A stretch of 32,000 nucleotides of DNA from Caldimicrobium thiodismutans (GTDB lineage: Bacteria > Desulfobacterota > Thermodesulfobacteria > Thermodesulfobacteriales > Thermodesulfobacteriaceae), in the NCBI RefSeq assembly GCF_001548275.1, contig NZ_AP014945.1, positions 360,001 to 392,000 on the forward strand, given 5' to 3'. A program made the translations under genes and the position numbers. Each line of letters starts with the position of its first letter. Position 1 is the stretch's first letter. Of the stretch, positions 13,371 through 28,955 are shown piece after piece. The notes beneath the pieces were generated by a model that worked only from the letters and a program-made list of their open reading frames with translations, was not told where the DNA came from and searched no databases.

Positions 13371-14567
13371 ATGGAGATAAAAGACCTTCTTGCCAGCCTT
13401 GTCATACTCTTGACCTATGTAGGTCTTACCTTAGGGCATCTTCCTTTTTTTCGCATGAACAGGGCAGGAATAATTTTGGTTGGGGTTACAATTCTTTCTT
13501 TAATGGGGATTATTAATTTAAAGGAGGCCTGGCAATCAATTGATGCCCAAACTCTGGTTTTTTTATTTGGCATAATGATTCTTAATGCCCATCTTGGTTA
13601 TGCAGGGTTTTTTGGTTTTTCCATGCAGGCCCTTTTAAGGTATGCCAGATCCCCCTTAGCTCTGCTCTGCATTATCAGTTTCTCAAGTGGTCTTCTATCT
13701 GCCTTTTTTCTCAATGATACAATGGCCCTTATGTTAACTCCTCTTGTTTATGGTGTGGTAAAGGCTCTTAAATTAAATCCCAATCCCTATCTTCTTGCCC
13801 TTATGTTTTCCGTTAATACAGGGAGTCTCATGACTCCTACTGGGAACCCTCAAAATATTCTCATAGCCAGTATCTCCGGCTTAAGTTTTGTTACCTTTAT
13901 TAAAAACCTATGGATAGTTTCACTCTTTGGACTTCTTTTACAGATTCTTATTCTTACATTTATTTATCCTGAGGTGCGTTCTTTAAAGCCCTTACCACCT
14001 TTAGAGATGACCTTTAGAGTTCATAAGGGACTCCTGAGAAAGGGAATTATGGTTACTTCAGGTCTTTTTTTAGCCTTTCTTGCTGGTCTACCCATGGCAG
14101 AGAGCGCCTTCATAGCTTGCGGGCTTTTACTTTTTACTCGAAGATTGCGTTCTGAGAGATACTTTAGCAAAATTGACTGGGAACTCCTTATTCTTTTTGC
14201 CGGACTTTTTATTTTAACCTTTACCACGCAAAAGTTGGGGTTACACAAACCACTCTTAGTTTTTACCCAGAGTTCTTATGGCCTTCTCTTTCTTACTGTA
14301 ATTCTTTCCTTGCTTATCTCCAATGTGCCAGCAGTATTAATTCTTTCGCCTTATGTAACCACTTCAAAGGATTGGTTACTTCTTGCTGGAGGAAGTACCC
14401 TTGCAGGTAATCTAACCCTTCTTGCCAGTGTAGCCAATTTGATTGTAGCAGAACTATTAGAAAAGGGAGGACATACTTTAAGTTTTTGGGAACATTTAAA
14501 AATAGGTCTCCCTTTAACTCTTCTTAATTTGCTTTTCCTGTATCTATGGCTATATCTACTTCCTTAA
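13371..14567 (+). CDS. ArsB/NhaD-superfamily anion permease (YbiR-like)
   Basis: 398-aa polytopic membrane protein carrying the superfamily signature TPTGNPQNILIAS. Confidence 0.7.
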   Translation: MEIKDLLASLVILLTYVGLTLGHLPFFRMNRAGIILVGVTILSLMGIINLKEAWQSIDAQTLVFLFGIMILNAHLGYAGFFGFSMQALLRYARSPLALLCIISFSSGLLSAFFLNDTMALMLTPLVYGVVKALKLNPNPYLLALMFSVNTGSLMTPTGNPQNILIASISGLSFVTFIKNLWIVSLFGLLLQILILTFIYPEVRSLKPLPPLEMTFRVHKGLLRKGIMVTSGLFLAFLAGLPMAESAFIACGLLLFTRRLRSERYFSKIDWELLILFAGLFILTFTTQKLGLHKPLLVFTQSSYGLLFLTVILSLLISNVPAVLILSPYVTTSKDWLLLAGGSTLAGNLTLLASVANLIVAELLEKGGHTLSFWEHLKIGLPLTLLNLLFLYLWLYLLP

Positions 14568-16131
14568 TCTCAAGGATTTTTTCCACATTAAAAGTGCGAG
14601 GTTCTCCACGGAGACAGCAAAAGGCCTTTAGAGCAAGAAAGGGTTTCCCCCGAAATTTTTCTTCTGAGACCTCCATAGGAAGAATTCTCCGTCTGCTTTT
14701 CTCATCACTACTTTTAAGATAAATTATCTCAAGCTCTTTTTTTTCTTGACAGGCCCTTTTGAGAAGTTTAATTTTTTCTTCAAGGGGAAGACTCTTTTTA
14801 GCTAAGGCATATTGAAAGGTAGTTAAAAATTTAATAACCCCTCGGTCAAGTCTGATATGGCCCTTTTTAACCGGGCTTTTTAGCACTATGCCATCAAGGG
14901 AGGTGCAACGGGAGAGGGCAACATAGAGCTGACCATGGGCAAAGGTCCCCTTCTCAAGATCAATGATTACTCTTTCAAAGGTAAGGCCTTGACTTTTATG
15001 AATAGTTATTGCCCAGGCAAGTTTTAAAGGAAACTGAACAAAGGAGCCAATAGTTTTTGTCTTCACTATTCCCTCATTTTTGTCAAAATAGTGCTCATAG
15101 ACCTCCCATTTAAAGGGAATTACCTCAACTATCTTTCCCCGTCTCAATTCAACCACTATGGTTTCATCCTCAGGCAGGATTTCAATAACTTTACCTACAT
15201 CTCCATTTACCCAGTCACCTTCTGGATGATTATTGAGAAGCATGACCTGAGCAGATTCTTTAATCTTCAAAATAAGGGGAGCAGGAAGATCATCAACCTC
15301 AAGTCTTCCCCTTAAGGAACCCTCGAATTCAAAGAGGGGCTTTTTTATGTTTTCTAATTGCGAAAGGTTTATCTCTTCAGCTCGAGCATTGGTTGTTGTA
15401 AGGTTGATATAAAATTCATTCGTTGGGGGTTCAAATTGAGGATTGACCCTTTCGTTTAAAATTGAGAGCACATCCTCTTCTGCAGTCCCATTCCGGATAC
15501 GATTAAGTATCTCAATGAACAAGGCATCTCTTTGGCGATAGATCTTTTCAAATTCTACAAATTCAAAGGGATTCTCTTTAAAGGCCCTGGCACTAAAGAA
15601 AAAGGGAGTCTCATAGAGATATTTAAAGATTTCTTTTTCTCCTGAAGTTACCACCGGGGGAAGCTGATAAAGGTCTCCTATAAGAATGATTTGAACACCT
15701 CCAAAGGGTTGTCCTTTCTTAGGGCCCCATTTTCTTAAAAAGGTCTCCACGCAGTCAAAGAGATCAGCCCTTACCATGGAGATTTCATCAATAATAAGGG
15801 TTTGAATATGTTTATAAAGATCCTTATAGTCCTCCTTGGGCCCTAATTTCATTACCTTTTCCAGAGTGATGTCAGGTTTGAAACCAAAAAAGGAGTGAAT
15901 GGTTTGCCCCTCAATGTTTAAAGCTGAAACCCCAGTAGGAGCAAGCACTACTAAGTTTTTTTTGAGATTATCTCTTATAAATCTCAAAAAGGTGGATTTG
16001 CCAGTTCCAGCACGGCCGGTAATGAGCAAGTTTTTAGAAGTTTTTGAAATTATAGCCCAGGCCTTTTCAAACTCAGGATTAAAATCAATTTTTTTCAAAC
16101 TTAAGGTTAAATCTGTCTTTCTCCCTGGCAA
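14524..16131 (-). CDS. PIF1/RecD-family SF1B helicase with C-terminal WYL domain
   Basis: Walker A ITGRAGTGKST, Walker B LIIDEISMV, and the GDLYQLPPV and ITIHKSQGLTFERV / LYVALSRC motifs. The last ~75 aa (ELEIIYLKSSDEKSRRRILPMEV...FLALKAFCCLRGEPRTFNVEKILEI) match the WYL pattern. TTG start at 16131 with GAGGT upstream. Confidence 0.8.
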   Translation of the reverse strand: MPGRKTDLTLSLKKIDFNPEFEKAWAIISKTSKNLLITGRAGTGKSTFLRFIRDNLKKNLVVLAPTGVSALNIEGQTIHSFFGFKPDITLEKVMKLGPKEDYKDLYKHIQTLIIDEISMVRADLFDCVETFLRKWGPKKGQPFGGVQIILIGDLYQLPPVVTSGEKEIFKYLYETPFFFSARAFKENPFEFVEFEKIYRQRDALFIEILNRIRNGTAEEDVLSILNERVNPQFEPPTNEFYINLTTTNARAEEINLSQLENIKKPLFEFEGSLRGRLEVDDLPAPLILKIKESAQVMLLNNHPEGDWVNGDVGKVIEILPEDETIVVELRRGKIVEVIPFKWEVYEHYFDKNEGIVKTKTIGSFVQFPLKLAWAITIHKSQGLTFERVIIDLEKGTFAHGQLYVALSRCTSLDGIVLKSPVKKGHIRLDRGVIKFLTTFQYALAKKSLPLEEKIKLLKRACQEKKELEIIYLKSSDEKSRRRILPMEVSEEKFRGKPFLALKAFCCLRGEPRTFNVEKILEIKEVDIAIDTGKAN

Positions 16132-16762: not shown

Positions 16763-19516
16763 TTAAAAAGATTTATTCATGAGGGAAGTTAGTTCAGCAA
16801 AAGTTTTGGGGATTCTTGATTCGTTAAAATCTTTTTGCATCACTTTTAAATATTTCCATTCTTGTCCTGTTTGAGTTGTTATATCCATGCACCATTTTTT
16901 AATTGCTTCATCTTTTTTGTCAGTGTCTTCATATTCTTTACCTTTTGTTTCAATAATCCAGAAAACTTTTTTACTGCCAACTTTTTGCACAGCAACGAAA
17001 TCGGGATAATAAAATCTTATTGCTCCTTTTGAACTCAAATAGTCAATAGAGAATTTATCAGCAAGGGCAGAAAATTTTTCTATGTCGTTAGCATTATCAA
17101 GAAAATTAGCAAACTTTTCCTCAAAATTATTATAAACCGCAACAAAGTTGAATACTGTCTTTTTGCATCTTAAATGTTTCCTTCTCCAAATAAAAGGCTC
17201 GATAGACGATAGCTTAAAAGAACCCAATTTTATCACTTCTTTTTTTGTCTCAACAGAAATTTTGCCTATCTCTTTTGCTAATAAATCAATGACTGCTTCT
17301 TGAATTGAAATATCATTCAAGTTTTTCCTTAATTTTTCGTCTTCAATATCTTTTATCTTTGTTTCAAAACATCTTTCAAGGAGGTATCTTTCAACTATGG
17401 GGTATAAATTATTAAATTCAGAAGTAAGGCGTGCCCTTTTCATAACCTCCCGAACTATGTCAGAGACAAGTTCTCTACCAGATGGTAGAAATGATACATC
17501 TACTGCTACTTGATGAACCTCTGTTTCAGTTACAGGGAACTCCATTCTTAAAAGAATTTTTCTTTCTTCCTCAAGTTTATCCGAGGAATAAAGTGACGGA
17601 ATTTGTAATGGATCTAAAGTTTCTATTTTTTTATAATTTCTTGAAAACCTAAACTCAGTTCGAGGGATTTCAATATCATAAATCAATCTTGATTTTTCTG
17701 GAGCAATTGTTATAGGTAAAGGAGGCGGAGTTTTTGTTGTATTAATCCCAACCCCTTCTTTTTCAAGTTCACGGACAAAATTTTCAAATGCTTCTGTGCC
17801 CATTACTTCAAGGGTCTGGGTATGGTCTGGACTTATTCCTCTTATCAACCTCAATCCTCTTCCTACTGCCTGTTCAGGCAAAATCTGTGCTTTAGAAGTA
17901 AAGGGTCTTAATCCTAATACTATGGTTACATTTTGCACATCCCAGCCTTCTCTTAACATCAAATTACTTACGATTATTTTGATTTTGTTATCCGGTTCGT
18001 CAATTTTTCTTGCCAGTTCTCTTAATTTTGGAAGGTCTTTTTCTGAAATCTTTATTTCCGTCTCTCCTTCTCCTTTTGATTTCACATGAATAACCATTAC
18101 CTCCTCTTCAGGATTTTTAATAAATTCTTTCAAATCTTTTCTTTTTCTTATTGCTTCAGCGATTTTGTCAGCATACTCATTTTTCTCAGCCATAATAAAT
18201 AAAACTGGTTTCTTGCCAACCGTTGTATAAACTTCATAGTGTTCCTTCCATCGTTCAATTGCAGCAGTTATCCAGTCCCAATATTTCTGGACTACATTAT
18301 CTTTTGATATGCTTTCAGGGTCTTTTTTATCAACGCGATGCACTATCAATGGTGATTTGACAATCCTGTCCTCAACCGCTTGAGCAAGAGGATAATCAAC
18401 TATAATCCAGGGGTAATAGGTTCCTGTTTGTGTCTTAGGTGTAGCTGAAAAGTCAAGCCAGAGATCTATTCCATCAGGTAATGATTTATGGATTGACATA
18501 AGTGTTTTATGCCACTGTAATTCTTCATCATGAACATGGTGCGCTTCATCATTTATCACCATCAAACTGCTCAATTTTTTTATCTTATCAATTAAAGTTT
18601 CAGGCGATTTTGTTAAGTCCTTTTGAGGTTTCCTGCCAAGAATATCATCCACTATACTTTCAGGTGTCCATTCTTCCCTTCTTGATTCATATAACTGTTG
18701 AATATTGTTAACAATGAGATTGCCTGATGGATTTAAAGGTGAATTATCCCCTCGTAATGTAACTTTGATATTCCAGAGTGGTTTCCAGGCGGGAGGAATT
18801 AAAGGCAAAGAGTAGAAGATTTTATTATCAGCAAAATCTTTTGCCAATCTTTCATATACAATTACATTTGGAGCAATAATTAAGAAATTATCAGGATAAC
18901 GAGAGTCCTTTTCTCTGAGTCTATTAAAATAAGACCAGACAATAATTAAAGCCATAGCAATAGTTTTCCCGGAGCCCGTTGCCATTTTAAATGCGTATCT
19001 TAAAAGTCCTTTCTCAGGAAGGTCTTGCTCTCCTTTCTGTTCAAGCTCTGGAAAATACCTGATAAGCTTTCTTCTCCCCTCTGTATCCTCAACAAACTCA
19101 ACCGCATTACTAAATAAATCCTTCCTGAAATTTTCTGCATAGGTTTCAATTACCGGTTTTAAATCATCATATTTTTTTACTTCAAAGAGATAAATAAGGG
19201 TTTCAACTGCCTCTCTTTGACAGAACCAGAACTTGAAAGGTTCAGCGTTAACTTGATGGTCATTGAAAAACCAGAAATAAAGTAGTTCTCTTGTGGTATC
19301 AGTTACTTCAGGATAATCGTTATCACGCCACCTATCCACCTCTTCCCTTAGTTTATTTACAAGTAGCATCTTGCTCGGTCTTCTTCCTTCAACTACCTTG
19401 TAAGAATTTTCTCCATCTTTAATTAAATGAGAAACAGGCTTTTTGGATGGGTCTCTGTCTTCAATATAAGGAAGTGTCTTGTCGTATTGAACCCAGGTTT
19501 TTGGTGCTTTATTCAT
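16763..19516 (-). CDS. res: Type III restriction enzyme Res subunit (SF2 DEAH ATPase + C-terminal PD-ExK nuclease)
   Basis: Q-motif FCQREAVETL, motif I MATGSGKT, motif II VINDEAHHV, motif VI QAVGRGLR. C-terminal nuclease motif YYPDFVAV-(x14)-IIETKG (about nt 16940..17011). The start lies 1 nt after the mod stop, with GGAGGTGA embedded in mod's last codons. Confidence 0.85.
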   Translation of the reverse strand: MNKAPKTWVQYDKTLPYIEDRDPSKKPVSHLIKDGENSYKVVEGRRPSKMLLVNKLREEVDRWRDNDYPEVTDTTRELLYFWFFNDHQVNAEPFKFWFCQREAVETLIYLFEVKKYDDLKPVIETYAENFRKDLFSNAVEFVEDTEGRRKLIRYFPELEQKGEQDLPEKGLLRYAFKMATGSGKTIAMALIIVWSYFNRLREKDSRYPDNFLIIAPNVIVYERLAKDFADNKIFYSLPLIPPAWKPLWNIKVTLRGDNSPLNPSGNLIVNNIQQLYESRREEWTPESIVDDILGRKPQKDLTKSPETLIDKIKKLSSLMVINDEAHHVHDEELQWHKTLMSIHKSLPDGIDLWLDFSATPKTQTGTYYPWIIVDYPLAQAVEDRIVKSPLIVHRVDKKDPESISKDNVVQKYWDWITAAIERWKEHYEVYTTVGKKPVLFIMAEKNEYADKIAEAIRKRKDLKEFIKNPEEEVMVIHVKSKGEGETEIKISEKDLPKLRELARKIDEPDNKIKIIVSNLMLREGWDVQNVTIVLGLRPFTSKAQILPEQAVGRGLRLIRGISPDHTQTLEVMGTEAFENFVRELEKEGVGINTTKTPPPLPITIAPEKSRLIYDIEIPRTEFRFSRNYKKIETLDPLQIPSLYSSDKLEEERKILLRMEFPVTETEVHQVAVDVSFLPSGRELVSDIVREVMKRARLTSEFNNLYPIVERYLLERCFETKIKDIEDEKLRKNLNDISIQEAVIDLLAKEIGKISVETKKEVIKLGSFKLSSIEPFIWRRKHLRCKKTVFNFVAVYNNFEEKFANFLDNANDIEKFSALADKFSIDYLSSKGAIRFYYPDFVAVQKVGSKKVFWIIETKGKEYEDTDKKDEAIKKWCMDITTQTGQEWKYLKVMQKDFNESRIPKTFAELTSLMNKSF

Positions 19517-19517
19517 G

Positions 19518-21380
19518 TTATTTCACCTCCACATCAAAAATTTGTGATGTATCAATTCCAAAGATGTCAATAACTTTAACAAAAATTTTGTATTTACCCG
19601 GTTTTTCATAAGTATGTGTTGCTTTTAAATTTAGTGCTCTATTTTTCTTTGTCCTGTAAGATGTCCAGCCATTGTGAAAAGTGTCGCTCTTAAAGTCAAA
19701 ATCAATCGCCCAATAATCAATCCAGTCAGTCCATTTTTTGATCTTGTTCCGAACCTCATCTGGAATTAAATCAGTATGGGGAATAACAAAATCTTTTAGC
19801 TCTACTTCTACTTCTCTGCCTTTAGTTTTTATATCAACCTTAAAATAAGCAAGTTCAAAGAATCGGATATCCCCTTTTTTAACTGCCTCTTTGTCTAAAA
19901 CATCCATTGGTATGATTCTTAGTTTCAGTTTTACACCTTCTTTTTTGGCAATCTCTTCAATGGCATCATTTAATCCCATTTCCCATTCCCAGCCAAGGAT
20001 ATGAAGTTCTTTTCCCCCTTGAGATTTACAATCTTTTATAGCATCAATGCACTCTTGTATGGTAACAGGAGAATCCACTGCACCAACATAGACAAGGGCA
20101 TTTCCTTTTTTACCGTGTATATGAGTAAAACCTCTAACAGGCTCAGCACCATAAAGTTTTAAGATAAAAGCAAGGTATTCAAATAATGCCTGTTTTTCGT
20201 CTTTGTTTGTAAATGTCTTAACTTGCCAGAGTTGACGCTCATATTTGCCAAGATTTAAAATCTCAAAAGGTCTTGCTTTTTTACCGTATTTTTTACCTTC
20301 ATTTTCTAAATCCTTTGAGTTTTCAATATCAAGAAGCCGTTTCCTTGTTATGTGAATTGCATATCTTGATAAATCGCACCCAATCCATCTTCTTCCAAGT
20401 TTCTCTGCAACTGCTAAGGTTGTGCCTGAACCACAGAAGAAGTCAGCAACAAGGTCACCAGGATTGGAAGAGGCAAGAATAATGCGCTTTAATAAGGCTT
20501 CAGGTTTTTGGGTGTCAAAACCTACCCTTTCATTAATCATCGCAACACCTGTAGGAATATAAATCCAATCCTCAGGAAACTTACCTTTTTCTGGTAAAGT
20601 TATAGTTACTTCCTCTTTTCCATGATGAAAAATTTTCTTTCTACCTTCCATCCTTTTAGATGCCTCACTAAATTCTTGTCTTATTCTATCAGGTTCAAAA
20701 ATATAATTATCAGATTTTGTATACCACAAGATACAATCATGTCTTCTTGCTAAAACTTTTATGCCAGGAGAAGTTGCACCACTATAACACCACACTATCT
20801 CATTTCTAAAATTCTCATACCCAAAAATCTCATCCATCATCACCTTTACATAATGTCCAACACGCCAGTCAAGATGCACATAGATTGAGCCATTTTCAGC
20901 AAGTAGTTCTTTCATCAAAACAAGTCGTTCATACATCATCTGTAAGTATGAATCAAGTCCCTTCCCCCAGGTATCCCTGTATGCCTTTTCCTCAATGATT
21001 GAGTGTTCTTTTGTAATTTCCTCTGCTTCTTCTCCAACCTGAATCCTGAATTTAAAGTCAGCACCAGTTGCAAATGGTGGGTCAATGTAGATTAGATTTA
21101 TCTTTCCAGCAAATTTTTCAAGAAGTGAAGACATAATAAGTTTGTTATCTCCCCAAATGAGTTTATTACGCCACCCTTCCTCAAAAGTATTTCCTTCATC
21201 GCTTTCCCAATAGTCAAAAAGAGTTCCTTGCCCCACTTCTTTTCCTGTCCTCGGCTTGTTTATAACCTCAACAATCTGAAATGGATAAGGACCTGGCCTT
21301 TCAACTGGATTCAGTTTCCCCTCTTCATCATATTTTCCAAGCCAGACAAGTTCAGTTTTGTTGATATTGATTTTAGGCAT
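19518..21380 (-). CDS. mod: Beta-class (N6-adenine/N4-cytosine family) DNA methyltransferase, Type III Mod-like, with PKD-like C-terminal domain
   Basis: Motif IV IYIDPPF precedes motif I DFFCGSGTTLAVAEKLGRRWIGCDLS, which is the beta permutation. DPPF favours m6A. The last ~60 aa (WTSYRTKKNRALNLKATHTYEKPGKYKIFVKVIDIFGIDTSQIFDVEV) match the PKD beta-sandwich signature. Confidence 0.85.
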   Translation of the reverse strand: MPKININKTELVWLGKYDEEGKLNPVERPGPYPFQIVEVINKPRTGKEVGQGTLFDYWESDEGNTFEEGWRNKLIWGDNKLIMSSLLEKFAGKINLIYIDPPFATGADFKFRIQVGEEAEEITKEHSIIEEKAYRDTWGKGLDSYLQMMYERLVLMKELLAENGSIYVHLDWRVGHYVKVMMDEIFGYENFRNEIVWCYSGATSPGIKVLARRHDCILWYTKSDNYIFEPDRIRQEFSEASKRMEGRKKIFHHGKEEVTITLPEKGKFPEDWIYIPTGVAMINERVGFDTQKPEALLKRIILASSNPGDLVADFFCGSGTTLAVAEKLGRRWIGCDLSRYAIHITRKRLLDIENSKDLENEGKKYGKKARPFEILNLGKYERQLWQVKTFTNKDEKQALFEYLAFILKLYGAEPVRGFTHIHGKKGNALVYVGAVDSPVTIQECIDAIKDCKSQGGKELHILGWEWEMGLNDAIEEIAKKEGVKLKLRIIPMDVLDKEAVKKGDIRFFELAYFKVDIKTKGREVEVELKDFVIPHTDLIPDEVRNKIKKWTDWIDYWAIDFDFKSDTFHNGWTSYRTKKNRALNLKATHTYEKPGKYKIFVKVIDIFGIDTSQIFDVEVK

Positions 21381-21383
21381 AAT

Positions 21384-24209
21384 TTATACCTCCTCAAGTT
21401 CCTTTGTTTTGAATTTAATTATGCCGTTTTGCGAACAATAAAATCTAAAATCACACTCCTTACAAACTTTTTCAGTATCAGGTGGAATATTGACTCTAAA
21501 ATTTTCTGATTTAATTTTTTTAACCACTTCATCAAAATAATTCCACGCTGCTTCTATATCTTTCTCTGAATACTTCATTTCCATCAAGGCATCCTTTCTT
21601 TTTTCTTCCGATGTCCAGTAGATATATATTTTTTCTACTGGCTTATTATATCTTTCTTTTAAAATATACGCATATAAACAAAGTTGTTTAAAGTATTTGT
21701 CAATAAGTTCAGGATTTTTCTCTTGTTTCGGCTGTGTTTTGAAATCAAGTATTTCAAATTTTCCATCCTTTGACATTAAAAGATCTATTTTGCCTGTAAT
21801 TATATAATCTTCTTTCTCAACCGAGACCTCCACTTCCGTTTCAGAAATCCTTTCAAGAATATCCTGGTTTTGATTGAAGTAATTTATCACCTGTTTTAAG
21901 GCTACCTCTTTTTGTGTCTTTGAAATAGGTCTTAATCCTGAAAGGAGCAGGGCTTTATAATTTTGCTCAAACCAGTTTTCTATATCCTGGGTTGTAAAAC
22001 TTTTTCTATCAAGAACCGCACGATGGATGTCTTCTATTGTATGGTGAACCAAACTTCCAAACAAAACCTGGGCAGAACGAGAAGGCTGAAACTCATATTC
22101 TTTATAAAAAAGATACTGTTGGGGACAGGTCTCATAAACATTAATGTTTGAAAGAGAATACGATTTTTTAGGAACAAATTGAGGTTTTGACTGAAATTTT
22201 TGCACCTGTAATGTTTCTTTTTCCACATAAGGGTACTGATCAAGCCCTTCCCAGATAGTAGAAAACCAATCCTGAGGTTTTTCTGGTGTGGTTAAGACGA
22301 GCAATTTTTGTGCCCTGGAAAAAGCAACATAATAATGTCTTAATCTGTCAAACTTAGTCATCTGTTCTTCAGTTTCAAAAGTTCCTCTCTTAGAGAATGG
22401 AAGAAGGTCGCGGTCCACCTGCTTTTGAACAGCAAATTTTTTATGGAGCGAACCTACAAGAACTACTGGAAACTCTAACCCTTTTGCCTGATGAATTGTC
22501 ATAATCTGGACAAACCCCTTGGGTATAGGATTGTATGGGTCTTCATATTCATCAATTCCTGTTTGCATTAGAAAATTTAGAAAACTGCCAAAGAGATAAT
22601 TTTTAATAAATTCTTTATTCTTAGCTGTTACCAGTGAAATATCGTAATAATCCATAAACACTGAGAGAAGCTTTGAAAAAATAGAAAGATTATATGCTTT
22701 GTTTTTATCTTTAAGAAACGCAGAAAAAGGTTGATATGCAAGGAGCTGATAAAAGTAATCAAGTATTGTCAGGTCAAGGGAACCTGTTTTTAAATTTTCT
22801 ATCTGTCTTACCTTTCTCCGCAAGTAATCCTTGAGTGCCTGGTTTATGTTTTTGGGTAATAATTTTATTGACTCTTCAATGTATTCCCTGTGAGGGTATT
22901 CTTTAAGTATATCTCCATAAAACCCAAAAATGATTGAATAACAAGCAATGAGTAATTTAACTTCTGTATTTTCAAAATACTTCTTTGCCCGTGGAGAAAA
23001 ATAAGGGATGTTATCGTCTTTTAATGCATTAATGTAGTGTGAACTGTGTTCAGACTTAACACTTTTTAAAAGAATTGAAACATCACTCCAATCTTCAATA
23101 ATCTTTTTGTTTTTTAAAAATTTTATAAGTTGAACAACTCTCTTTGCTTCGTCCTTTTCGTCTCTTCCCCAGATACAAAAAACAGCCGGATATTCGGGAA
23201 ATTCTGCAGAAGGGTCAGGTTTTATTTCCTTTGGATATCTAAATCCGTTCCAGTCAATTGAAGTTATAAATTTATTATATTTTTCAATTATCTTTTTATG
23301 CGACCTGTAATTGATTGTCAATTTTATCTGTTTACAATTTTTAAAGTGTTTAGGAAATTCTAAAATGTTTCTTACCGTTGCTCCTCTGAAACGGTATAAA
23401 GATTGGTCTTCATCTCCAACCACACATATATTATTTTCAGGACTTGCAAGTTTAAGTAGAATCTGCTCCTGAATATAATTTGTGTCCTGATACTCATCTA
23501 CCATTATGTATCTTATTTTTGATTTTATCTTTCGATAAACCTTTTCATTACATAGTAACTCATAAAAGATTTTTAGAAGATGGGCAAAATCCACCCTGTT
23601 GGTCTCAAATAATTTTTGGCAATATGCTTTATAACAACCTGCAAGAGCCATTAGAAATTCATCATTAGAGTCTTCTAATTTAGAAATATCTATCATTTCC
23701 TCTGTTATTTTATTTAGATATGGAACCACTTCTTTAATTGCCCTCCATTTTTTAGCCCATTTGCCTAAAAACTTTCCGTCCCTTTTAATCATTACTTCAT
23801 CAAAATTTTCATAAATAAAAAATATCTGCGTTAACTCCTCTAATACTGAATATCCTCTTTTAAGAGGAGTATAAGAAAGGAACTTCATAATATACTCATT
23901 ACATAAACTATGGATAGTTCCCATCTTTATAAGATGGAGTTGCCCCTGATAATTAATTTTTCGTGCAAGTTGGCTTATTCTGTCTCTCAATTCATAAGCA
24001 GCCTTTTCAGTAAAGGTCGTAAGTATAATTTCATCTGGTTGAGCCTTTTCAGAGATAAGAAGATACAGGGTTCTTGCAACAAGGGTAAGTGTCTTACCTG
24101 TTCCAGGACCTGCAATAATAAGAAGAGGTCCATCGGTTGTAGTAATTGCCTCAATCTGGTCATCATTTAAAGAAGGAATAATCTCTTTTATTTTATCAAT
24201 TGCATTCAT
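21384..24209 (-). CDS. UvrD/PcrA-family SF1A helicase fused to a Cas4/AddB-type PD-(D/E)xK nuclease with a 4-Cys (Fe-S) motif
   Basis: Motif I IIAGPGTGKT, motif II IMVDEYQDTN, motif III VVGDEDQSLYRFRGA, INYRSHKKI, TIHQAKGLEFPVV and VAFSRAQKLLVL. The C-terminal ~260 aa carry YETCPQQY, GKIDLLM...EILDFKT (D...D-x-K), QLCLYAYIL and CKECDFRFYC (C-x2-C-x5-C, nt ~21435..21464). Confidence 0.85.
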   Translation of the reverse strand: MNAIDKIKEIIPSLNDDQIEAITTTDGPLLIIAGPGTGKTLTLVARTLYLLISEKAQPDEIILTTFTEKAAYELRDRISQLARKINYQGQLHLIKMGTIHSLCNEYIMKFLSYTPLKRGYSVLEELTQIFFIYENFDEVMIKRDGKFLGKWAKKWRAIKEVVPYLNKITEEMIDISKLEDSNDEFLMALAGCYKAYCQKLFETNRVDFAHLLKIFYELLCNEKVYRKIKSKIRYIMVDEYQDTNYIQEQILLKLASPENNICVVGDEDQSLYRFRGATVRNILEFPKHFKNCKQIKLTINYRSHKKIIEKYNKFITSIDWNGFRYPKEIKPDPSAEFPEYPAVFCIWGRDEKDEAKRVVQLIKFLKNKKIIEDWSDVSILLKSVKSEHSSHYINALKDDNIPYFSPRAKKYFENTEVKLLIACYSIIFGFYGDILKEYPHREYIEESIKLLPKNINQALKDYLRRKVRQIENLKTGSLDLTILDYFYQLLAYQPFSAFLKDKNKAYNLSIFSKLLSVFMDYYDISLVTAKNKEFIKNYLFGSFLNFLMQTGIDEYEDPYNPIPKGFVQIMTIHQAKGLEFPVVLVGSLHKKFAVQKQVDRDLLPFSKRGTFETEEQMTKFDRLRHYYVAFSRAQKLLVLTTPEKPQDWFSTIWEGLDQYPYVEKETLQVQKFQSKPQFVPKKSYSLSNINVYETCPQQYLFYKEYEFQPSRSAQVLFGSLVHHTIEDIHRAVLDRKSFTTQDIENWFEQNYKALLLSGLRPISKTQKEVALKQVINYFNQNQDILERISETEVEVSVEKEDYIITGKIDLLMSKDGKFEILDFKTQPKQEKNPELIDKYFKQLCLYAYILKERYNKPVEKIYIYWTSEEKRKDALMEMKYSEKDIEAAWNYFDEVVKKIKSENFRVNIPPDTEKVCKECDFRFYCSQNGIIKFKTKELEEV

Positions 24210-24910
24210 AACAGCTTTTCTTTTTTAAAACTTAAATAGCCATTAGCAGTAACAATAAGATGATCATAAAGCAAAAGACCTACTGATTTAGCTGCTATCT
24301 CAATAACCTTTGTTAAATTTTTGTCATATTCTGAAGGTTCTAACTTACCATTTGGATGATTATGGGCAAGAATTATTGCATAGGATTTCCTCTTTAGCGC
24401 CTCTTCAATTATTGCCCTTGGATAAACAACCGTCTTATCAATAGTTCCTGAAAAATAAAATTCTTTCGCAGGAAAATCTTTCTCTTGCTGTATTTTTAAT
24501 CCACTATCCAAATAAATTACTAAAAATTCTTCCTCCATTTTATGCCCAATCCTTTCAATACAATATTTTGCAATCGCATCTATAGATTCAAAAACTGGTT
24601 TTTCTAAAGCTTTTTGCTTGTTATAAATGATATTAATTTCTCTTATAAGTTTTATTAAAGTAATAAATTTATCTTTTATATATCTAACAGATTTTAATTC
24701 TTCCTCTTTTGCATCAAAAATACCTTTTATAGAACCAAATTTATTAAGAAGCTCTTTTGCTATTGGTTTAACATCTTTTTGGGGAAGAACATAAGTTAAA
24801 AGCAATTCAACTATTTCATATTCTTGTAATCCCTCAGAACCAAACTGCATCAACCTCTTTCTCAACCTTTCTCTATGCCCCAAATAATGTTTCTCGGTAT
24901 TATATTTCAT
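24206..24910 (-). CDS. radC: RadC-family JAB/MPN domain protein
   Basis: N-terminal RadC HhH region (HRERLRKRL...ELLLTYV). C-terminal JAMM-like signature ILAHNHPNGKLEPSEYD. Its stop overlaps the helicase-nuclease start (ATGA at 24206..24209). Confidence 0.9.
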   Translation of the reverse strand: MKYNTEKHYLGHRERLRKRLMQFGSEGLQEYEIVELLLTYVLPQKDVKPIAKELLNKFGSIKGIFDAKEEELKSVRYIKDKFITLIKLIREINIIYNKQKALEKPVFESIDAIAKYCIERIGHKMEEEFLVIYLDSGLKIQQEKDFPAKEFYFSGTIDKTVVYPRAIIEEALKRKSYAIILAHNHPNGKLEPSEYDKNLTKVIEIAAKSVGLLLYDHLIVTANGYLSFKKEKLL

Positions 24911-25027: not shown

Positions 25028-25168
25028 CTTTTTGATCTGACCTGATTTATTATCATTTAACATCAGACAATAGTATATAAATAAAAAAAACAAAAAGGCA
25101 AGTTCATTTTTTAATAATTTTTTATGGTGGCTATGGGGGCTTTCGGAAAAGAGTGTAAGCCAGGATAT

Positions 25169-25490: not shown

Positions 25491-25564
25491 GGCGACGTAG
25501 CTCAACGGGTTAGAGCATGTGGCTCATATCCACAGGGCTGGGGGTTCGAGTCCCTCCGTCGCCA
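25491..25564 (+). tRNA. tRNA-Met (anticodon CAT), elongator type; could be tRNA-Ile2 if the C34 is lysidinylated
   Basis: Hand-folded cloverleaf. Acceptor GGCGACG/CGTCGCC, D-stem GCTC/GAGC, anticodon stem TGTGG/CCACA with loop CTCATAT, T-arm GGGGG-TTCGAGT-CCCTC. 74 nt. It has a G1-C72 pair and no GGG/CCC anticodon stem, so it is not an initiator. Confidence 0.9.
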
Positions 25565-25581
25565 CTTATTTTGAAACTTAT

Positions 25582-25653
25582 GGCGGCGTAGCCAAGCGGT
25601 AAGGCGACGGCCTGCAAAGCCGTGAATCCGGGGTTCGAATCCCCGCGCCGCCT
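25582..25653 (+). tRNA. tRNA-Cys (anticodon GCA)
   Basis: Hand-folded cloverleaf. Acceptor GGCGGCG/CGCCGCC, anticodon stem ACGGC/GCCGT with loop CTGCAAA, T-arm CGGGG-TTCGAAT-CCCCG. It has the U73 discriminator and A13:A22 mismatch typical of tRNA-Cys. CCA is not encoded. Confidence 0.9.
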
Positions 25654-25666
25654 CATAATTTAATAT

Positions 25667-26727: not shown

Positions 26728-27761
26728 ATGTCAAAGAAGAAACCTCCTATTCCCTATGACCTCTTTGCCAAGGCCTTCCTCAAAGATCCTGAAAACTTAA
26801 AAGGCTTCCTCTCAACCTTCCTCCCTGAGCATATTAAAACTCATCTTGACTTTGACTCCCTTAAAATTATCCCTGAAGAGCAAGTCTCTCTCTCAAGAAA
26901 AAAGAGAGAAATCCCGGACCTTGTTGCTGAGGTTAATCTTCTTAGTGAAGGGAATCTTCAACCAAAGCCCATCTCTACATCCTTATTGAGCACAAAAGTG
27001 CACCTGATAAAAGAATTTACCTTCAGATTTTAAATTACATAACGGCATTAAATGAGAGGTCTTTCAAGGAGGGGAAGGGGTATGTGCCTGTTTTACCCCT
27101 TGTGTTTTATGAAGGGAATAAGCCCTGGGGGTATCCTGAAAGGATAGAGGAGATATTTTCAGTGCCAGAGGGGTTAAAGGGAGAACTTTTTAAGGTTCAT
27201 GTGGTAGATTTAAAGAGGGTAGAGGATGAGAAGATATTGAGGATATTTGATATTTTAGCAGGGCTTGGGTGTTATCTTTATTTAATAAAGGCGGAAGCAC
27301 TGGAATTTGATGAGATAATTGAAGTTATTACAAGGGCGATAGAGAGATTAGTAGCAATAGGGGAGAAGGGGAGGTGGGAGATAGGGTTTTTGATAGAGAT
27401 AGCAGTAATAAAGAGTGGGGTTGACGAGGAGATAATCTGGTTTAATATATTAGATAGGTGTGGAGAAGAGGGGGTAAAGATGGAGTTAAAGAGCTTTTGG
27501 GATAGAGTAGGAGAGAAGTTTTATAAGCAGGGAATTGAGCAGGGAATTAAGCAAGGAATTGAGCAGGGGAAATATCAGGGGTTAATTGAGGAGGCAAGGG
27601 AGCTTGTGCTTGAGGCCATAGAGGTGAAGCTTGGGTATGTGCCTGAGGAAGTGAGGGAGAGGGTAGTAAGGGAGGAGGATAGAGGAGTTCTCAAGGAGTG
27701 GCATAGAAAAATAATTCTTGCAAAGAGCTCTGAAGATATCTTTAAACTCTTTGAAAGTTGA
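26728..27761 (+). pseudogene. Rpn/YhgA-like (PDDEXK_2, 'putative transposase') recombination-promoting nuclease gene, split by one frameshift
   Basis: ORF 26728..27033 carries the N-terminal part up to the catalytic IPDLVAEV. The family continuation HLYILIEHKSAPDKRIYLQILNYITALNE...GYVPVLPLVFYEGNKPW reads in the other frame (open from 26949) and joins ORF 27084..27761. The frameshift maps to ~26949..26969, between the catalytic D and the E-x-K. Confidence 0.75.
27527..27574 (+). repeat. 12-nt tandem repeat x4 (GCAGGGAATTGA-like) encoding QGIE-QGIK-QGIE-QGKY
   Basis: The four units are gcagggaattga / gcagggaattaa / gcaaggaattga / gcaggggaaata. They lie in frame inside the Rpn-like gene. Confidence 0.8.
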
Positions 27762-27989
27762 TAAATTCATAAATTTTTTTTCTTTTTGTGTTTGGTATAA
27801 GTTTAAATAAAAATTGGTATGGATTTAAGATCTTGAACCCCTCCTTTATAAAATTCTTTTAAAGAGCTTTTACTCAAGTCAATAAGTATTTTAAAATGGC
27901 AAAATTCAAGCAATACTCCAGCCCTATATATGGACGCATACAAGTTAAAATTGAAAAAAAATTAAAAACTGCTAAAATGATTTAAAATT

Positions 27990-28955
27990 ATGAGTGACGA
28001 AAGAGTTGAGGAAGGCATCTTAGAAAAACTTGAAGAGCTAAGCTCAATTGCTCTTATTGATGCAGTTGAGGAGGAAACCAAGCTCCCAGCTAAATTTGAT
28101 CCTCTGCAGAGATATCTTCAGGAGATCTCAAGGTATCCTGTATTATCAAGAGACGAGGAGGAGGCAGTAGCTAAGGCCTATTATGAGACCAAAGATCCAA
28201 GGCTGGCTTATAAACTTGTGGTTTCCAATTTAAGATTGGTAGCTAAAATTGCCCTTGAGTTTCAGAAATTCTGGGCTTATAATTTTCTTGACCTTATTCA
28301 GGAGGGTAATCTCGGTCTCCTTCAGGCTGTGAAAAAATTTGATCCCTACAAAGGGGTGAAATTTTCTTATTATGCTTCCTTCTGGATTAAGGCTTACATA
28401 CTGAAATATATAATGGATAATTGGAAACTGGTAAAAATGGGGACTACTCAGGCCCAGAGGAAACTTTTTTACAAACTTCGCAAAGAAAAAGAAAGGCTTT
28501 CAGCTCTTGGTTTTGAACCAACTGCTAAAGAGATTGCCAAAAGCCTTGGAGTCAAGGAAAAGGAAGTAGAAGAGATGGAAATGCGCATGTATTCGCAGGA
28601 TCTGAGTCTTGAGGCCCCAGTAAGCTATGATTCTGAAGAGACCTTTGGAGACTTTCTTAAAGATGCCCGACCAGGTCCAGAAGATACCTACGCCCGCGAG
28701 GAGATATTGAATAATTTCAGAAGGCTTCTTAAAGACTTTGCTCAAGAATTAACTGGAAAGGATTACATTATCTTTTATGACCGACTTTTAGCTGAAGAAC
28801 CTAAAACCTTAAATGAACTTTCCCAGAAGCTTGGTATCTCCAAGGAAAGAGTAAGACAGATTGAAGAAAAGATTATAAAGAGATTAAGAAAATTTTTACA
28901 GGAGAGATTGCCGGATGCGACCCTCTATCCTCAAGCCCTACCTTATAAAGAATAA
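27990..28955 (+). CDS. rpoH: RNA polymerase sigma-32 (heat-shock sigma factor)
   Basis: Region 2 DLIQEGNLGLLQAVKKFDP. RpoH box VKMGTTQAQRKLFYKLRKEKERL, compared with E. coli [23 protein letters not shown]. Region 4 HTH LNELSQKLGISKERVRQIE. Confidence 0.85.
   Translation: MSDERVEEGILEKLEELSSIALIDAVEEETKLPAKFDPLQRYLQEISRYPVLSRDEEEAVAKAYYETKDPRLAYKLVVSNLRLVAKIALEFQKFWAYNFLDLIQEGNLGLLQAVKKFDPYKGVKFSYYASFWIKAYILKYIMDNWKLVKMGTTQAQRKLFYKLRKEKERLSALGFEPTAKEIAKSLGVKEKEVEEMEMRMYSQDLSLEAPVSYDSEETFGDFLKDARPGPEDTYAREEILNNFRRLLKDFAQELTGKDYIIFYDRLLAEEPKTLNELSQKLGISKERVRQIEEKIIKRLRKFLQERLPDATLYPQALPYKE

Follow-up and report, generated by a model that had tools for sequence, protein, structure and literature searches.

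In the genome of Caldimicrobium thiodismutans, a stretch of 32,000 nt (contig NZ_AP014945.1, positions 360,001 to 392,000; hereafter the window) was found to carry four adjacent minus-strand genes encoding a RadC protein, a UvrD/Cas4-like helicase-nuclease (HelNuc) and the Mod and Res proteins of a Type III-like restriction-modification (R-M) system. Comparison across genomes showed that these four genes are one conserved, co-inherited unit, far beyond chance, which consists of two tight pairs, RadC/HelNuc and Mod/Res, with a permissive hinge between them that gathers other defence genes. Based on the sequences, we propose with middling confidence that this unit is a mobile Type III-like R-M lineage, in which HelNuc may act as an end-processing accessory after restriction and RadC may be its coupled partner. 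The four genes, in their order in the operon, are:

24206..24910, minus strand: radC, the first gene of the operon, encoding a full-length RadC of the canonical type (234 aa)
21384..24209, minus strand: the HelNuc gene, encoding the UvrD/Cas4-like helicase-nuclease (941 aa)
19518..21380, minus strand: mod, encoding a beta-class amino-methyltransferase (620 aa)
16763..19516, minus strand: res, encoding a superfamily 2 (SF2) ATPase with a C-terminal PD...ETK endonuclease (917 aa)

As read from the sequence, the HelNuc start overlaps the radC stop in an ATGA, HelNuc and mod are 3 nt apart (TAA-att-ATG), and mod and res are 1 nt apart (TAA-c-ATG). The mod start is preceded by GAGGAGG and the res start by GGAGGTG. 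No GGAGG-type Shine-Dalgarno sequence was found before the HelNuc start, where only AAAAGAAAAGCTGTT is present, so that coupling of radC to HelNuc would depend on the ATGA overlap by itself. A preliminary description of this region had given the four open reading frames (ORFs) exactly these coordinates and this near-zero spacing, and its domain assignments for all four proteins agree with the Pfam, PADLOC and NCBIfam matches reported below; the GGAGG-type Shine-Dalgarno sequence that it placed at each downstream start is present at mod and res and absent at HelNuc.

To survey HelNuc neighbourhoods, a full-length HelNuc alignment was scanned against a genome collection, which picked up generic UvrD motifs and thus mostly housekeeping UvrD/PcrA loci, with L006-L008 being useful; for this reason, the nuclease domain alone was used for metagenomes. 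This domain retrieved 109 clusters (50% identity) at E <= 1e-30, mostly proteins of 940-1000 aa matched at their C-terminus. The survey comprised 80 metagenome loci obtained in this way (45-82% identity) together with L001, L002, L004 and L008 from protein look-ups and the genome scan, and all loci were scored with phmmer. HelNuc homologues with more than 50% identity were found in Thermodesulfobium, Desulfurella, WOR-3, TA06, Caldithrix, Ignavibacterium, Bacteroidales and a Helarchaeota metagenome-assembled genome (MAG). In the first three loci inspected, from Caldithrix, TA06 and WOR-3, RadC lies directly upstream of HelNuc and a Type III Mod downstream; Res is present in the TA06 and WOR-3 loci, and the Caldithrix locus stops within Mod. 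Across the survey, RadC was directly upstream of HelNuc in 45 of the 59 loci with enough upstream sequence, and the loci with at least 9 kb downstream of HelNuc contained Mod in 21 of 23 cases and Res in 18 of 23. The loci that apparently lack Mod are mostly contigs ending within an inserted TmtA or Schlafen gene (see below). The linkage also holds in the reverse direction: when Res homologues of 61-77% identity were picked solely for their long contigs, RadC-HelNuc-Mod was found upstream in 4/4 informative loci. A different arrangement was seen in locus L096 (13428-19076), where a RadC-less HelNuc has a full Type I set, hsdM-hsdS-hsdR, after it in place of Type III Mod/Res.

The four proteins also diverge together. 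Over 24 complete loci, the Pearson correlation of pairwise protein identities was r = 0.95 for RadC-HelNuc, 0.94 for HelNuc-Res, 0.92 for RadC-Res, 0.89 for Mod-Res, 0.82 for HelNuc-Mod and 0.79 for RadC-Mod. The genes flanking the operon vary from locus to locus while the unit is kept, indicating that the operon moves as a block. Dozens of loci, belonging to unrelated phyla, have these genes in the same order and on the same strand. That the genes are unrelated and came together by chance in a single genome, for which only the general mosaic nature of defence islands can be cited, is refuted by this recurrence, with its different flanks and conserved overlaps, and the probability of such a coincidence is practically nil.

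The association of HelNuc with Mod and Res extends to a sister clade (clade 2, the window belonging to clade 1), whose HelNuc proteins are 34-42% identical and whose loci contain HelNuc-Mod-Res in 31 of 33 cases and Mod in 32 of 33. These loci come from plasmids of Enterococcus, Phaeobacter and Nitrosomonas, the Acutalibacteraceae phage NatCom_11578 (Caudoviricetes) and about 27 IMG/VR contigs, and of 5,426 E. coli genomes that are complete, only 3 have the triad, in islands flanked by insertion sequences. The Mod proteins of the two clades share 43% identity. The clade-2 Res has a TnsA-like C-terminal endonuclease module, is homologous to the window Res in its helicase and PD...ExK parts, and gave no significant PADLOC match. 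Because the HelNuc-Mod-Res triad is common to both deep clades, it is ancestral, with RadC having been added in the clade of the window. The E. coli triads, which include L212 (AH21, NZ_CP081711.1, 62917-70246) and L213 (VG888-46E9), have no RadC and carry no annotation beyond 'ATP-dependent helicase', 'site-specific DNA-methyltransferase' and 'DEAD/DEAH box helicase'; they would make a convenient mesophilic model. In a Lachnospiraceae MAG (L006, 17344-20680), IetA/IetS (an AAA ATPase and an S8 protease) lie immediately downstream of the clade-2 Res.

Junction spacing revealed the internal structure of the unit. The RadC stop and HelNuc start overlap in 38 of 46 loci, 33 of them as a 4-nt NTGA, in AT-rich and GC-rich hosts alike, and Mod and Res are at most 20 nt apart in 34 of 47 loci. 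The spacing between HelNuc and Mod is at most 20 nt in 27 of 62 loci and more than 100 nt in 32, and about half of the loci have unrelated defence or regulatory genes at this position. Even with such inserts, the order and strand of the operon genes are invariant. Stoichiometric co-translation of all four genes, as predicted in the preliminary description, was therefore an overstatement, since only the two pairs are tight and about a quarter of loci have no RadC.

The hinge cargo on the same strand includes a protein of 1,077-1,101 aa or 1,508-1,563 aa that has a sacsin-type GHKL ATPase domain at its N-terminus and a NOV_C/DUF3883 domain at its C-terminus and matches the PADLOC model TmtA of the Tiamat system (1389 bits for L128). 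Other same-strand cargo consists of a Schlafen/AlbA_2 protein with HATPase_c_4 and HTH (helix-turn-helix) domains, and of pairs of HTH and M78 peptidase genes. TmtA, the only gene of the single-gene system Tiamat, sits in the HelNuc-Mod gap, in the orientation of its neighbours, in about 21 of the 80 clade-1 metagenome loci (clade-1 loci with TmtA include L008, L112, L119, L125, L127, L128, L136, L142, L153, L156 and L159), and divergently upstream in 4 of 33 clade-2 loci (L197, L202, L205 and L210). This different placement in the two clades suggests a functional affinity and not one insertion. In Caldithrix abyssi (L001, 10899-16875), a five-gene insert encoding AbiEi_4, a C5 DNA methylase, a HATPase_c_3 protein (MORC/MutL-like), a 420 aa protein and an HhH-GPD protein separates HelNuc from the Type III Mod. 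Inserts were also observed at the Mod-Res joint, where TA06 (L002/L003, 13706-13972) has a GIY-YIG gene and L167 a GATase-like ORF, and where about 760 nt separate the two genes in L088-L091; the Mod-Res joint is thus not fully closed to insertion.

Such a hinge raises the question of whether RadC and HelNuc, or HelNuc alone, form an autonomous defence module that merely shares an island slot and a promoter with Type III R-M. The tightness of each pair, the distance of more than 100 nt between them in 32 of 62 loci and the presence of TmtA, the Schlafen/HATPase_c_4 regulator or HTH-M78 genes in this joint would all fit such a module, as would the pairing of HelNuc with Type I R-M in L096 and the Dcm/Vsr context reported in the literature (Hudaiberdiev et al. 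2017, BMC Evol Biol 17:232, PMC5704561). However, a methyltransferase-based system is adjacent to HelNuc in nearly every case, gene order and strand stay invariant despite the inserts, HelNuc and Res diverge together (r = 0.94), the triad is ancestral to two deep clades, and no PADLOC model has HelNuc as a stand-alone system. We therefore consider an autonomous module unlikely. The preliminary description had put forward both this hypothesis and one in which HelNuc works with the R-M system; the latter is favoured by the near-absence of HelNuc without an R-M partner and by the triad being common to the two clades, while the former is weakened, yet retains the support of a hinge that takes in defence genes in about half of the loci.

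RadC shows both domains of the canonical protein, a helix-hairpin-helix (HhH)-type N-terminus and a JAB domain with an E...HxH...D metal site. It matches Pfam RadC JAB (2.4e-33) and UPF0758_N (6e-07), scores 165.5 bits against TIGR00608 (cutoff 133.85) and 173.5 against the PRK00024 equivalog, just short of the cutoff of 180, and matches PDB 2qlc at 6.2e-15. The protein is 100% identical to C. thiodismutans RadC, and at least 95% of 49 operon RadCs retain the JAMM residues E, HxH and D. Stand-alone chromosomal RadCs located beside scpAB, znuABC and similar genes share about 43-45% identity with the operon RadC, so by sequence the latter appears to be a close offshoot of the housekeeping type, unlike the short prophage type. 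In a neighbour-joining tree, the housekeeping sample had been picked by similarity to the query, and its branching settles nothing about the monophyly of operon RadCs.

HelNuc joins a UvrD-like SF1A helicase to a Cas4/AddB-like 4-Cys PD-(D/E)xK nuclease at its C-terminus, with Pfam matches to UvrD-helicase (1.2e-66), UvrD_C, PDDEXK_1 (1.7e-28) and Cas_Cas4. Its Walker A motif GPGTGKT, DEYQD, D809, D822-x-K824 and the cysteines C695, C916, C919 and C925 are invariant in 12 homologues; the QxxxY residues of the nuclease are invariant too. In the PDB, the sequences nearest to HelNuc are PcrA and UvrD. With a UvrD SF1 helicase at the N-terminus and a 4-Cys Cas4-like PD-(D/E)xK nuclease at the C-terminus, it falls among the UvrD-Cas4 fusions. 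It shares with AddAB, RecBCD and AdnAB an SF1A motor, a PD-(D/E)xK nuclease, a 4-Cys Fe-S motif of the AddB/Cas4 type and an expected DNA-end substrate. Unlike AddAB/RecBCD, HelNuc is a single chain of 941 aa in an R-M operon and has no second motor or nuclease subunit, unless RadC is one; no AddB-, RecC- or RecD-like gene was found in the operon. Assignment to AddA or RecB themselves was rejected, as HelNuc scored 181 against addA_Gpos (cutoff 707.65) and 120.9 against recB (cutoff 696). Its helicase part strongly matches GajB of Gabija (PADLOC, up to 2.4e-58), a similarity generic to UvrD helicases; GajB lacks a Cas4-like nuclease, unlike HelNuc, and no GajA (OLD/TOPRIM) was found among the scanned window ORFs, so the locus is not a Gabija system.

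The housekeeping affinity of RadC and the resemblance of HelNuc to the recombination enzymes AddA and RecB could also mean that the two proteins protect the host, through recombinational repair or processing of the ends at Type III breaks that the cell inflicts on itself, or by stabilising the cassette after its transfer, much as chromosomes are rescued from restriction by RecBCD. The cassette crosses phyla and is found on plasmids and proviruses, where an R-M system that has just arrived is a threat to a host still lacking the methylation. This role is, however, quite improbable, given that no Chi-recognition or RecA-loading features were identified, that the AddA and RecB scores of HelNuc in NCBIfam lie far under the cutoffs, and that the recurrent neighbours and inserts are defence genes and not repair genes.

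Mod is a beta-class enzyme with a central variable target-recognition region, as expected of a Type III Mod. It matched N6_N4_Mtase (7.4e-48), the PADLOC model MTase_III PDLC03633 over its full length (1.5e-165) and EcoP15I Mod (4zcf_A, 1.7e-18), and its motif IV DPPF (about residue 100) precedes motif I FCGSG (about residue 313), the motif order of the beta class. Among 48 homologues, residues of about 180-290, the central target-recognition region, are unconserved, which fits changing specificities, and the conservation profile showed that the C-terminal approximately 250 aa are unusually conserved.

Res, which is 100% identical to THC_0379, combines an SF2 ATPase with a C-terminal PD-(D/E)xK domain and is encoded directly downstream of mod, as is a Type III Res. 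It matches ResIII (4e-16) and RE_endonuc (8.2e-07), and at least 95% of 43 sequences retain its motifs ATGSGKT, NDEAHH, QxxGRGLR (motif VI) and PD...ETK. No PDB sequence matched Res at E <= 0.01. Its AlphaFold2 model (pLDDT 73) retrieved only generic SF2 helicases in Foldseek, and EcoP15I Res was not among the top 50 matches. Res thus appears Type III-like by architecture, its kinship to EcoP15I Res being unproven. The C-terminal half of Res resembles the NCBIfam family NF046055, a Bordetella pertussis family named 'BPTD_3080 family restriction endonuclease' (5e-87, short of the cutoff set for the family). In Bordetella, Type III systems have been reported to produce N4-methylcytosine (m4C) and not N6-methyladenine (m6A) (Murray et al. 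2021, PLoS One, PMC8259958). Mod may therefore make either of the two bases.

With a Res so far from EcoP15I Res, an atypical division of labour is possible, in which HelNuc, with or without RadC, acts within the restriction reaction itself, unwinding or remodelling DNA for methylation or cleavage by Mod and Res, which corresponds to the 'site-specific unwinding and cleavage' suggested by Hudaiberdiev et al. (PMC5704561). The near-obligate linkage and the co-divergence of HelNuc with Mod and Res would be consistent with such a role, as would the finding that m4C Type III systems of thermophiles require Res for methylation (PMC8259958). On the other hand, the ATPase and PD...ExK motifs of Res are complete, the inserts between HelNuc and Mod speak against a holoenzyme of fixed stoichiometry, and the closest functional relatives of HelNuc (RecB, AddA, AddB and Cas4) act on DNA ends. 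Participation of HelNuc in the restriction reaction therefore seems improbable to us.

Returning to the reading that we prefer, with HelNuc as an end-processing accessory, Mod would methylate host DNA and specify the site, and Mod and Res together would cut unmodified incoming DNA, as suggested by their family membership. HelNuc would then be an accessory and not a core restriction subunit, which would load on the breaks or ends made by Res, unwind DNA in the 3'->5' direction and degrade the strand passing its Fe-S PD-(D/E)xK domain. This degradation would make restriction irreversible and independent of the host RecBCD/AddAB. The HelNuc step is suggested by its domain homology to RecB, AddA, AddB and Cas4 and by the near-obligate genomic linkage. 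The most speculative step concerns RadC, which may process the other strand or blocked ends, following the nuclease role envisaged by Iyer et al. 2011, or may regulate HelNuc. An accessory role of HelNuc is supported by the linkage found in both directions, the co-divergence, the deep conservation of the triad and the intact active sites. That RadC is a dedicated partner of HelNuc, as a second catalytic subunit (a nuclease or an enzyme for end-processing) or as a regulator, acting on the DNA unwound by HelNuc, and that the four genes make up a 'restriction plus degradation' defence system, is put forward more tentatively and may well prove wrong.

Several observations weigh against this reading. 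The unrelated genes at the HelNuc-Mod joint imply that strict co-translation of the four genes is not required, and mere co-localisation in defence islands is conceivable. Res has an endonuclease motif of its own, so that a second nuclease is not obviously needed. Of the 59 clade-1 loci, 14 have no RadC; these are spread across the HelNuc tree, the deepest branches of which lack it, and RadC was found in 0 of 33 clade-2 loci, so that it is dispensable. No consistent substitute was found in the RadC-less loci, where the upstream genes are heterogeneous (HNH_2, SNase, EVE or nothing). The specificity of HelNuc for Type III systems is not absolute, as seen in the Type I genes of L096 and the Dcm/Vsr context of PMC5704561. 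Moreover, no experimental test of the UvrD-Cas4 plus Type III family was found in the literature, and the extra gene of Eco86II, a Type III system described below, was dispensable for methylation and undetected in the partially purified enzyme (PMC8259958).

HelNuc belongs to a family that has been described. Hudaiberdiev et al. reported a monophyletic UvrD-Cas4-like fusion that is most often found beside Type III Mod+Res, some loci also having Schlafen-ATPase-HTH and WYL/HTH genes, and that has a second context with Dcm/Vsr/MORC; from comparative genomics they proposed an ancillary defence role, leaving the system unnamed (PMC5704561). HelNuc shares with this fusion the SF1 UvrD helicase, the pfam12705 Cas4-like nuclease, the Mod+Res neighbourhood and the accessory genes of the Schlafen-ATPase-HTH and WYL/HTH kinds. 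The second context (Dcm, MORC-like ATPases) is matched here by Caldithrix L001, in which both contexts are combined, given its insert and its Type III Mod. RadC, JAB and COG2003 are absent from the main text of that paper, and RadC and COG2003 from the text of its supplement, as far as the portions covered go, one supplementary file being included in part. In the literature searched, 'UvrD-Cas4' appeared in no other paper, and no paper tying RadC to UvrD-Cas4 or to Type III R-M was found. Thus, the link between HelNuc and Type III systems is already known, while the RadC partnership, the gene overlap, the two clades and the hinge are in no report found; what is added to PMC5704561 is the RadC-HelNuc overlap, the distinction of clades with an RE_endonuc-type and a TnsA-like Res, and the hinge with its Tiamat cargo. 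The four-gene architecture had been called unrecognised in the preliminary description, and indeed no named system fits it, but HelNuc with Mod/Res was described in 2017 and only RadC was missing there. When the four proteins were checked against PADLOC, no model fitted the system: RadC had 0 matches even at E <= 0.1, and HelNuc, for which there is no model, matched generic GajB, RTasHel, Cas4 and DruK.

Similarities and differences to other known systems were also evident. As in canonical Type III systems (EcoP1I/EcoP15I, Mod2Res1), the operon has a beta-class Mod with a variable centre, a Res with an SF2 ATPase and a PD-(D/E)xK domain, and mod upstream of res (1-2 nt apart in the canonical systems), and its Mod is similar to EcoP15I Mod. 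It differs from them in having two extra upstream genes, a long conserved C-terminal extension of Mod and a Res with no PDB match. Cleavage by a Type III enzyme depends on ATP and on two unmethylated sites in inverse orientation and falls about 25-27 bp from a site, and an asymmetric motif is hemi-methylated. Murray et al. described the Type III systems Eco86II and BspHIV, in which a third, helicase-like gene lies immediately 5' of mod-res; this conserved extra gene, which they describe as SF2-like and lacking a nuclease motif, was counted in more than 500 genomes (PMC8259958). The extra 5' gene resembles the arrangement of the HelNuc operon, but RadC is not involved, and the likeness is one of description. 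The three E. coli genomes with HelNuc triads differ from the strains named in that study. For RadC, Iyer et al. 2011 (PMC3239186) deduced a nuclease-like role from fusions to the DinG helicase, in which RadC replaces the 3'-5' exonuclease domain. In these RadC-DinG fusions and in polyvalent proteins from conjugative elements (PMC3239186, PMC5512222, PMC11981726), the RadC JAB domain is coupled to a DNA helicase, as in the present operon. Unlike in RadC-DinG, RadC in the operon is a full-length HhH+JAB protein of its own, and its partner is an SF1 UvrD-Cas4 and not the SF2 DinG; the context is host defence by R-M, whereas that of the RadC polyvalent proteins is plasmid anti-restriction and the leading region.

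The system is widespread and mobile, occurring in many bacterial phyla, at least one archaeal MAG, plasmids, a phage, proviruses and E. coli islands. PADLOC 2.0 has no model for it, and defence annotation would call it an ordinary Type III system at best. If HelNuc does degrade restricted DNA, the operon would provide a self-contained alternative to the host RecBCD/AddAB step, with a bearing on phage inhibitors of RecBCD and on how R-M feeds other immune pathways. The coupling of RadC to HelNuc also gives a testable handle on RadC function, in a system with a phage-resistance read-out. If confirmed, their partnership would be the first fixed biochemical context for the near-universal RadC, whose function has been disputed since the 1980s. 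Since the operon RadC is about 45% identical to housekeeping RadC, with the same domains and the same metal site, this context would extend to the latter.

The surroundings of the operon in the window contain the following features:

25072..25101, minus strand: candidate sigma-70-like promoter (TTGCCT-18-TATACT) upstream of radC, identified by consensus match only
25491..25654, plus strand: tRNA-Met and tRNA-Cys genes, which flank the island and are divergent from radC, detected by ARAGORN and Rfam
14524..16131, minus strand: gene of a PIF1/RecD-like helicase (SF1B) that carries a WYL domain at its C-terminus, roughly 630 nt downstream of res

Promoter-like sites are as numerous in the region as expected from shuffled sequence, and the candidate radC promoter is thus weakly supported. 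No Rfam element other than the two tRNAs, and no att-like direct repeat or integrase, was found in the window, and no phase-variable simple repeats were found in mod or res. The GC content of the cassette is 0.30-0.36, compared with 0.37-0.44 in most of the flanks. The PIF1/RecD-like-WYL gene matched Pfam PIF1 (3.6e-31) and WYL (2.5e-07), with weak PADLOC matches to PDC-S68, PDC-M16A and RecD-like models. Used as a survey query, it recurred in none of the surveyed loci; it probably shares the low-GC island and sits outside the conserved unit. On the plus strand, 26728-27761 holds what looks like a pseudogene, a YhgA/Rpn-like 'Transposase_31' gene broken into two ORFs (26728-27033 and 27084-27761); its coding strand is strikingly G-rich, with a GC skew of 0.505 over 27001-28000.

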